A stretch of 64,000 nt of DNA from a virus. Lineage: Duplodnaviria > Caudoviricetes. Made by a program: the position numbers and the translations under genes. The notes beneath the pieces are model-generated. The model was given only the letters and a program-made list of their open reading frames with translations, was not told the DNA's origin and made no database searches. The stretch is taken from the IMG/VR virus record IMGVR_UViG_3300047557_002530. One strand, written 5' to 3'. Positions 60,465 to 60,584 of the stretch are shown one piece after another (position 1 is the first letter of the stretch; the number at the start of each line of letters is the position of its first letter).

Positions 60465-60584
60465 TCCCAGTGACGCCGTTGGTAACGGTCATGTGGTCGG
60501 GTGGTGCCCCCGCATTCCAGAAGGGAGTTAATCTCCTGAGGTAGGTGACTAAAAAACTTAAGGTTCGAATCCTTATACTGGGAC
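60465..60584 (+). ncRNA. atypical tRNA-like element 4 (120 nt, expanded interior)
   Basis: TCCCAGT/ACTGGGA acceptor, TAAGG-TTCGAAT-CCTTA T arm, extra internal hairpins. Confidence 0.6.

Follow-up and report, generated by a model that had tools for sequence, protein, structure and literature searches.

A tRNA-bodied RNA without an anticodon loop in the tRNA arrays of T4-like cyanophages

The tRNA array and its surroundings

The window, by which we mean the whole 64,000-nucleotide stretch of DNA that was analyzed, stems from a T4-like cyanomyovirus, a freshwater cyanophage, and carries nrdA/nrdB, a SegE-type endonuclease gene, a Dps-like gene and gnd. Its closest sequenced relatives are Synechococcus phages S-PM2, S-SRM01 and S-CREM1. 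Between 58.2 and 63.9 kb lies a tRNA array in which ARAGORN recognizes 21 tRNAs and a two-piece tmRNA, all on the plus strand. The gene reported here, which specifies an RNA of 118 bases (60466-60583, +), has the same orientation as the tRNAs of the array and occupies a 132-nt gap between tRNA-like element 3 upstream (60386-60457, labelled His(atg) by ARAGORN) and tRNA-Asn downstream (60590).

The SegE-type GIY-YIG endonuclease gene (Pfam match) is located at 56121-56846, immediately upstream of the array. A match to the Rfam abiF RNA (RF03085; 40.3 bits versus a gathering score of 37) at 58167-58203 adjoins tRNA-Arg(tct) on its upstream side, and the abiF family has been reported in S-CREM1. 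At 58712-58860, tRNA-Lys is directly followed by tRNA-Asp, while S-PM2, S-CREM1 and many other relatives place tRNA-Tyr between the two; genes for tRNA-Tyr, tRNA-Cys and tRNA-Ala were not detected by ARAGORN in the window. In related arrays, denoted by L numbers throughout, putative HNH-type-like small ORFs are positioned between tRNA-Gly and tRNA-Asn (L024, L046, L052, L063 with a gap of 343 nt, and L007 with a gap of 352 nt). The presence of endonuclease-like ORFs in or near the arrays fits their mosaic gene order.

Architecture and conservation of the 118-nt RNA

The outer portions of the RNA form a chassis of canonical 7/5 tRNA geometry, i.e., with an acceptor stem of 7 bp and a T stem of 5 bp. 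The 5′ strand of the acceptor stem, CCCAGUG (60466-60472, +), pairs with UACUGGG (60576-60582, +); all seven pairs are standard in each of the 12 distinct variants that were collected, and six of the seven covary. An earlier note on this DNA had recognized a 7-bp acceptor in the register TCCCAGT/ACTGGGA, which the pairing in the 12 variants shifts by one base to the right. Likewise, the extent of 120 nt (60465-60584) proposed there is reduced to 118 nt, because the apparent eighth acceptor pair between 60465 and 60583 is mismatched in three of the 12 variants and does not covary. For the same reason, 60583 is taken as the discriminator base, which is A here and in nine variants altogether, U in two and C in one; CCA is not encoded at the 3′ end. 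The unpaired base that precedes the acceptor, 60465, is U in 11 of the 12 variants. A U at position −1 is preferred by bacterial RNase P, and this base may be relevant to RNase P cutting of the 118-nt RNA.

The linker AC (60473-60474, +; tRNA positions 8-9) is invariant in the 12 variants, and A8, lying opposite U14, looks like a swapped form of the usual U8-A14 contact. The hairpin that had been described as D-like is present and is an ordinary D arm (60475-60489, +) consisting of a 4-bp stem, GCCG/CGGU, and a 7-nt loop, UUGGUAA. The GG of the tRNA elbow occurs in the loop of every variant, and the first pair of the stem changes from G.U to A-U in four of them. A single base at position 26 separates the D arm from the central module. 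The T arm, UAAGG-UUCGAAU-CCUUA (60559-60575, +), and the helices AUGUGG/CCGCAU and GGGAG/CUCCU are all present where the earlier note had placed them, the last being listed there as GGAG/CTCC. The T stem comprises 5 bp in all variants, one of its pairs changes from A-U to G-C in two variants, and the loop has the consensus UUCRAAU.

From tRNA position 26 to position 49, where an ordinary tRNA has about 22 nt, the RNA carries a 68-nt module that replaces the anticodon arm and the variable loop and harbors three invariant tracts, the hairpin tip GG-UGGUG-CC, UCCAGAA and GAGGUAGGUG. Hairpin H2 (60491-60515, +) sits at the position of the anticodon arm and is built from an outer stem of 6 bp, a UC bulge, an inner stem of 3 bp and the pentaloop UGGUG. 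Five of its nine pairs are doubly changed; the outer stem covaries, and an inner G-C pair is replaced by U-A in five variants. The H2 tip (60500-60508) is identical in all 12 variants. Four of the variant-finding scans left this tip free, and in the scan that yielded the first group-B variants the fixed parts were the D arm and UUCCAGAA; by the design of the scans, the invariance of the tip was accordingly tested solely among variants keeping another fixed motif. H2 is followed by the single-stranded tract UCCAGAA (60516-60522, +), which is identical in the 12 variants; it was fixed in several search patterns, and patterns leaving it free gave no variant form of UCCAGAA. Hairpin H3 (60523-60537, +; GGGAG-UUAAU-CUCCU in the window) varies in both sequence and length. 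It is represented by nine different hairpins of 4-7 bp, each of which folds by itself, with unconserved loops of 3-5 nt (UUAAU, AUU, AAU, GAAA, UUAU, UUUA, UUAA and GUAA). The module ends in a second single-stranded tract (60538-60558, +) that consists of GAGGUAGGUG (60538-60547) and an A-rich tail. GAGGUAGGUG is identical in all 12 variants, including those retrieved by a pattern from which it was absent, and in the subgroup to which the window belongs a Shine-Dalgarno-like AGGUGA lies within this tract.

Taken by itself, the folding energy of the window RNA is not significant (z = −1.42 for the single sequence). The earlier note had named a lack of structural conservation as a reason to abandon its reading; the fold is in fact kept in 12 distinct variants. 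In their alignment, 97.6% of the cells form standard pairs, changes on both sides (compensatory changes) occur in 13 of the 28 modelled pairs and in four of the five helices, and none of 500 shuffles reached the observed values for pairing and covariation. Pairing falls to 38-47% in controls with slid partners, and RNAalifold independently gives the same helices. The RNA thus adopts this fold and has been under selection to keep it. Among the first seven variants, substitutions affect 24 of 58 paired versus 4 of 53 unpaired columns (Fisher p = 5e-5), a contrast that is partly ascertained as the search patterns fixed some of the unpaired columns. The fold of the plus strand is more stable than that of the minus strand in all seven variants tested and, together with the G.U pairs, this marks the plus strand as the one that encodes the RNA. 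Comparison of the window with array L085 revealed a single difference in 120 positions of the element, about nine in 72 positions of the adjacent tRNA-Asn, and unrelated upstream flanks; judged from these two sequences, the 118-nt RNA appears more conserved than the neighboring tRNA. A coding function of the minus-strand ORFs 60296-60595 and 60397-60597 was considered and rejected, because the flanks are unrelated between contexts. On either strand, coding is contradicted by a 2-nt length change in H3 that shifts the frames, and by stops in some variants.

Distribution, class membership and genomic context

When 50,697 phage genomes were searched by blastn, neither the window RNA nor two other variants used as queries found a match. 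Among 80 related arrays, fetched via a conserved upstream gene encoding 136 amino acids, only one copy was present, and it was identical. Scanning IMG/VR and JGI/GenBank metagenomes with sequence patterns, on the other hand, led to about 25 uncultured cyanomyovirus contigs with the 12 distinct variants; diversity is modest, with two subgroups. All members were recovered by patterns that fixed portions of the invariant tracts, and the invariance of these tracts is therefore partly ascertained. A covariance model built on the first seven variants assigns 90-151 bits to members and at most 19 bits to everything else, the background including every ordinary tRNA across about 0.8 Mb of related loci. 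Prokaryotes were scanned with a pattern as well, with one genome per species for 185,579 species, and no copy was detected; the sole match to the pattern was a chance occurrence inside a Chloroflexi coding region, and a host copy was thus rejected. One copy of the gene is present in each of the two partial virus records searched and none in a complete relative of 222 kb, and the gene is accordingly an accessory one. This small family is restricted to tRNA arrays of T4-like cyanophages from fresh and estuarine waters.

Is the RNA a tRNA? A 7-bp acceptor, a D arm with G18 and G19 and a T loop of the T-Psi-C type are found in all 12 variants. None of the 12 contains a conserved 7-nt anticodon loop. 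H2 ends in a pentaloop, and the loop of H3, the sole hairpin loop with room for an anticodon, is conserved neither in sequence nor in length, and for these reasons the RNA cannot decode. The tRNA model RF00005 (gathering score 29 bits) does not match the window RNA even at E = 10, nor do any of the 4227 Rfam models call it at this threshold. With default settings and introns allowed, ARAGORN reported no gene in seven variants, and with relaxed settings the isotypes were inconsistent between variants (Leu, Ile, Pro and Arg).

Other classes were rejected as well. The 8/5 geometry of bacterial tRNA-Sec looked attractive in the window, where eight contiguous pairs and a possible 6-bp D stem can be drawn; the eighth pair fails in three of the 12 variants, a UCA loop is missing and RF01852 does not match. 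A tmRNA was not reported by ARAGORN -m, and every variant has C-G at acceptor pair 3-70 instead of G3.U70. Group I introns of the cyanobacterial tRNA-Leu UAA type are at least 200 nt long and reside in the anticodon loop; the insert in the 118-nt RNA has 68 nt, and it matched no Rfam intron family. The match to YrlA/bacterial Y RNA (RF02553) reaches 13.6 bits, where the gathering score is 69, and spans two genes (60538-60644). A hammerhead or other ribozyme was dismissed since the order of GAA and CUGA around H3 is wrong and Rfam gave no match; CUGA is moreover lost in subgroup B. By inspection, the bases of the AGAA/GA internal loop do not fit the kink-turn consensus. Neither half of the RNA points to a convincing parent tRNA. 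UCCAGAA resembles the acceptor strand in certain tRNA-Gln genes of phages, from which the tRNA-Gln of the window itself differs; the resemblance is not significant (equalled by 134-201 of 500 shuffles). Antisense targets of the invariant tracts within the 64-kb window did not exceed chance.

All variants reside within tRNA arrays, on the tRNA strand, in at least eight different sets of neighbors. These are, before and after the gene, Arg(acg) or element 3 and Asn, Met(cat) and Leu(taa), Leu(caa) and Leu(taa), Met(cat) and Val, Val and Pro, a small ORF and Gly, and others. As the neighbors differ between arrays, the RNA must be selected for itself. Upstream of the window copy, a promoter sequence TTGACA-N17-TATGAT (60274-60302, +) matches the consensus at 11 of 12 positions and would be expected to drive tRNA-Gly, element 3, the 118-nt RNA and tRNA-Asn as a single transcript; jointly transcribed with its neighbors, the RNA would have to be excised from the precursor. 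In several other contexts, a TTGACA-N17-TATGAT promoter ends 5-7 nt upstream of the 5′ end of the RNA and the next one begins 2-4 nt past its 3′ end. There, the gene with its own predicted promoter has the makings of a stand-alone cassette. A near-identical promoter, TTGACAATC...TATGATTGTCT, precedes individual tRNA and tRNA-like genes (window 60274-60302; L099 1208-1236 and 1363-1391; flanks in L087, L092, L093, L098 and L100). Judging from these sites, the arrays are strings of putative promoter-plus-RNA cassettes, and the repeated promoters probably help the cassettes to shuffle between arrays. A tie to phage tmRNA was rejected, as most arrays with the 118-nt RNA have no tmRNA.

The arrays contain further tRNA-like RNAs. 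In element 3 of the window (60386-60457, 'tRNA-His(atg)'), the tRNA-like fold includes a bulged stem and a loop of the GACAA type; relatives of this RNA recur at varied sites in many related arrays (L007, L008, L012, L027, L029, L035, L052, L081 and others) and are labelled His(atg), Leu(caa) or '???' by ARAGORN depending on small changes. In L006, L009, L014, L020, L022, L042, L060 and L077, the gap between tRNA-Gly and tRNA-Asn holds a hairpin, TTGGTAGTC...GCCAA, and after it a degenerate RNA of about 73 nt that resembles a tRNA, with the acceptor GGAAGTT/AACTTCC and a T-arm-like CTGGTGTAAGTCCAG. This RNA has the GCAGACAATGC motif in common with element 3 and, together with the hairpin, fills the slot held in the window phage by element 3 and the 118-nt RNA. 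In addition, sequences of 82-90 nt with a perfect acceptor and T arm escape ARAGORN (L055 3094-3183; L008 7459-7545; L014 11608-11694; L065 11225-11311; L083 6833-6914). These, too, may be unconventional tRNAs or mimics.

Interpretation and comparison with known RNAs

The canonical chassis under selection and the conserved middle module, which is foreign to tRNAs, bear out the suggestion of a tRNA-scaffolded non-coding RNA made in the earlier note. In our judgment, the 118-nt RNA is likely to be a functional, non-decoding small RNA on a tRNA scaffold that is probably matured by tRNA-processing enzymes. We infer that it is expressed, processed and stable and that it has a partner. The chassis would turn the transcript into a substrate for host tRNA maturation, in the course of which RNase P would generate the 5′ end and 3′ trimming and CCA addition would lead to a product of about 121 nt. 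It would also stabilize the RNA, as it does in engineered 'tRNA scaffolds'. The module would be the working part, presenting the tip GG-UGGUG-CC, UCCAGAA and GAGGUAGGUG to a partner, for which our best guess is some part of the machinery for translation or tRNA handling. Two short complementarities are suggestive of possible contacts. UGGU in the pentaloop UGGUG could pair with the 3′ ACCA ends of tRNAs, a type of contact that T-box RNAs and RNase P RNA make, and AGGUGA in GAGGUAGGUG(A), with an A-rich tract after it, could pair with the 3′ end of 16S rRNA. It is a rather improbable extension of these considerations that the RNA acts as a phage-made translation modulator, whose tRNA body would reach the translation apparatus and whose invariant tracts would hold on to it. 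If this were true, the RNA could capture uncharged tRNA ends, or dock on the 30S subunit, and in this way retune host or phage translation.

Could the tRNA shape merely serve processing in cis? As a handle ('t-element') it would recruit RNase P and 3′ enzymes to cleave polycistronic precursors of tRNA or mRNA at this site, and the excised RNA would have no job. Punctuation by tRNA-like elements is an established feature of organelles and archaea, and in some contexts the gene lies directly after a small ORF or 2-6 nt from tRNAs. However, a handle needs the chassis alone, yet the most conserved sequence is the 68-nt module, and several copies are seemingly stand-alone cassettes with their own promoter among ordinary tRNAs that need no handle. 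Since the module is conserved most and the element often stands alone, we rank a pure handle below the non-decoding small RNA and attach little weight to it. Known anticodon nucleases recognize the anticodon loop, which is precisely what the 118-nt RNA lacks, and no link leads from its invariant tracts to any known defence. A decoy that soaks up a host tRNA-targeting defence or a tRNA-binding enzyme via the tRNA body therefore appears unlikely, although the elbow and acceptor are kept intact and phage tRNA clusters have been linked to the evasion of tRNA-cleaving defences (PMC13096335). The decoy is in any case a sub-case of the non-decoding small RNA and not a true alternative to it.

A genuine tRNA that decodes through an unusual or spliced anticodon region, be it intron-containing or of class II, would agree with the canonical acceptor, D and T arms, with the lack of detected tRNA-Tyr, -Cys and -Ala in the window phage and with the finding that relaxed ARAGORN with introns allowed proposes Leu(gag) with an intron of 41-43 nt for four variants. 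The relaxed isotypes vary by variant, however, a conserved 7-nt loop is missing, and the covariation of the outer H2 stem is that of a closed hairpin, so that the proposed 'intron' boundaries are ruled out. Furthermore, tRNA and group I intron models both fail E = 10, the discriminator is not fixed, and other arrays carry Leu(taa), Leu(caa) and Tyr genes as well as the 118-nt RNA. The tRNA with an unusual intron, which the earlier note had put forward as its second option, is consequently not supported, all the more as Rfam offered no intron, ribozyme or tRNA match, and we regard a decoding tRNA of this kind as extremely improbable. Decay of a tRNA pseudogene, or a chance joining of tRNA fragments as the array recombines, comes to mind since further degenerate tRNA-like pieces occur in these highly mosaic arrays, and a parent tRNA was not identified. 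This explanation is hardly credible in view of compensatory changes in four of five helices and of single strands that stay unchanged in all 12 variants and across eight or more genomic contexts.

The 118-nt RNA family offers a clean and tractable case, with a canonical chassis, a short module, three invariant motifs and clear covariation, often apparently equipped with its own promoter and borne by phages of culturable hosts (Synechococcus/Cyanobium). Identification of the partner could reveal what tRNA-bodied RNAs do for phages. The family also flags a class of viral genes overlooked by both tRNA finders and Rfam. In a large survey of structured viral RNAs, tRNA-like candidates are mentioned in general terms only (PMC10690425), and the RNA listing in the S-CREM1 paper is restricted to Rfam families (PMC9964418).

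With canonical tRNAs, the RNA shares the 7-bp acceptor, the 2-nt linker, the 4-bp D stem, the GG, the 5-bp T stem, UUCRAAU and the discriminator, and like a class II tRNA it has five helices. It differs from them by the lack of an anticodon loop, by A8/U14 in place of U8/A14 and by a 'variable region' of 41-45 nt with conserved single strands inside. In engineered tRNA scaffolds, tmRNA and YrlA, a tRNA-like domain lends processing and stability to a functional insert, and the same combination of tRNA body and functional insert is proposed here. Two elements of the window (59218-59307 and 60386-60457) are likewise anticodon-less mimics that have kept the tRNA body and replaced the decoding arm. 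Such mimics sit in the same arrays and their inserts are unrelated to the module of the 118-nt RNA, whose family is distinguished from them by its own invariant motifs and by being much rarer.

Ever since T4 RNA C and RNA D, phage tRNA clusters have been known to contain small non-tRNA RNAs, and these two are the closest known kind to the 118-nt RNA. RNA C (species 1, 139 nt) and RNA D (species 2, 119 nt) are similar to it in size and are also small non-tRNA genes within a T4-type tRNA cluster, on the tRNA strand; in T4 they lie just past tRNA-Arg. The 3′ end of RNA C, with a tRNA-type T arm, CCGGG-UUCGAAU-CCCGG, and an acceptor-like stem, resembles that of the 118-nt RNA. The family model gives RNA C 14.7 bits, all in the T arm, and does not match RNA D; homology of sequence or module was not seen, and both T4 RNAs are without the full D-arm/T-arm chassis. 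The T4 rnaC gene (L107 1409-1547, −) yields an RNA that folds far better than shuffled sequences (z = −4.6), compared with z = −0.8 for RNA D. In the model alignment, RNA C displays an 8-bp stem, ACGGAACG/CGUUUCGU, and its 3′ part is tRNA-like, a signal that RNA D does not have. The function of RNA C and RNA D is still listed as unknown (PMC3014915; 2022 omics study, PMC9697503). The 118-nt RNA represents a real, selected and uncatalogued family of a kind that was already known to exist.
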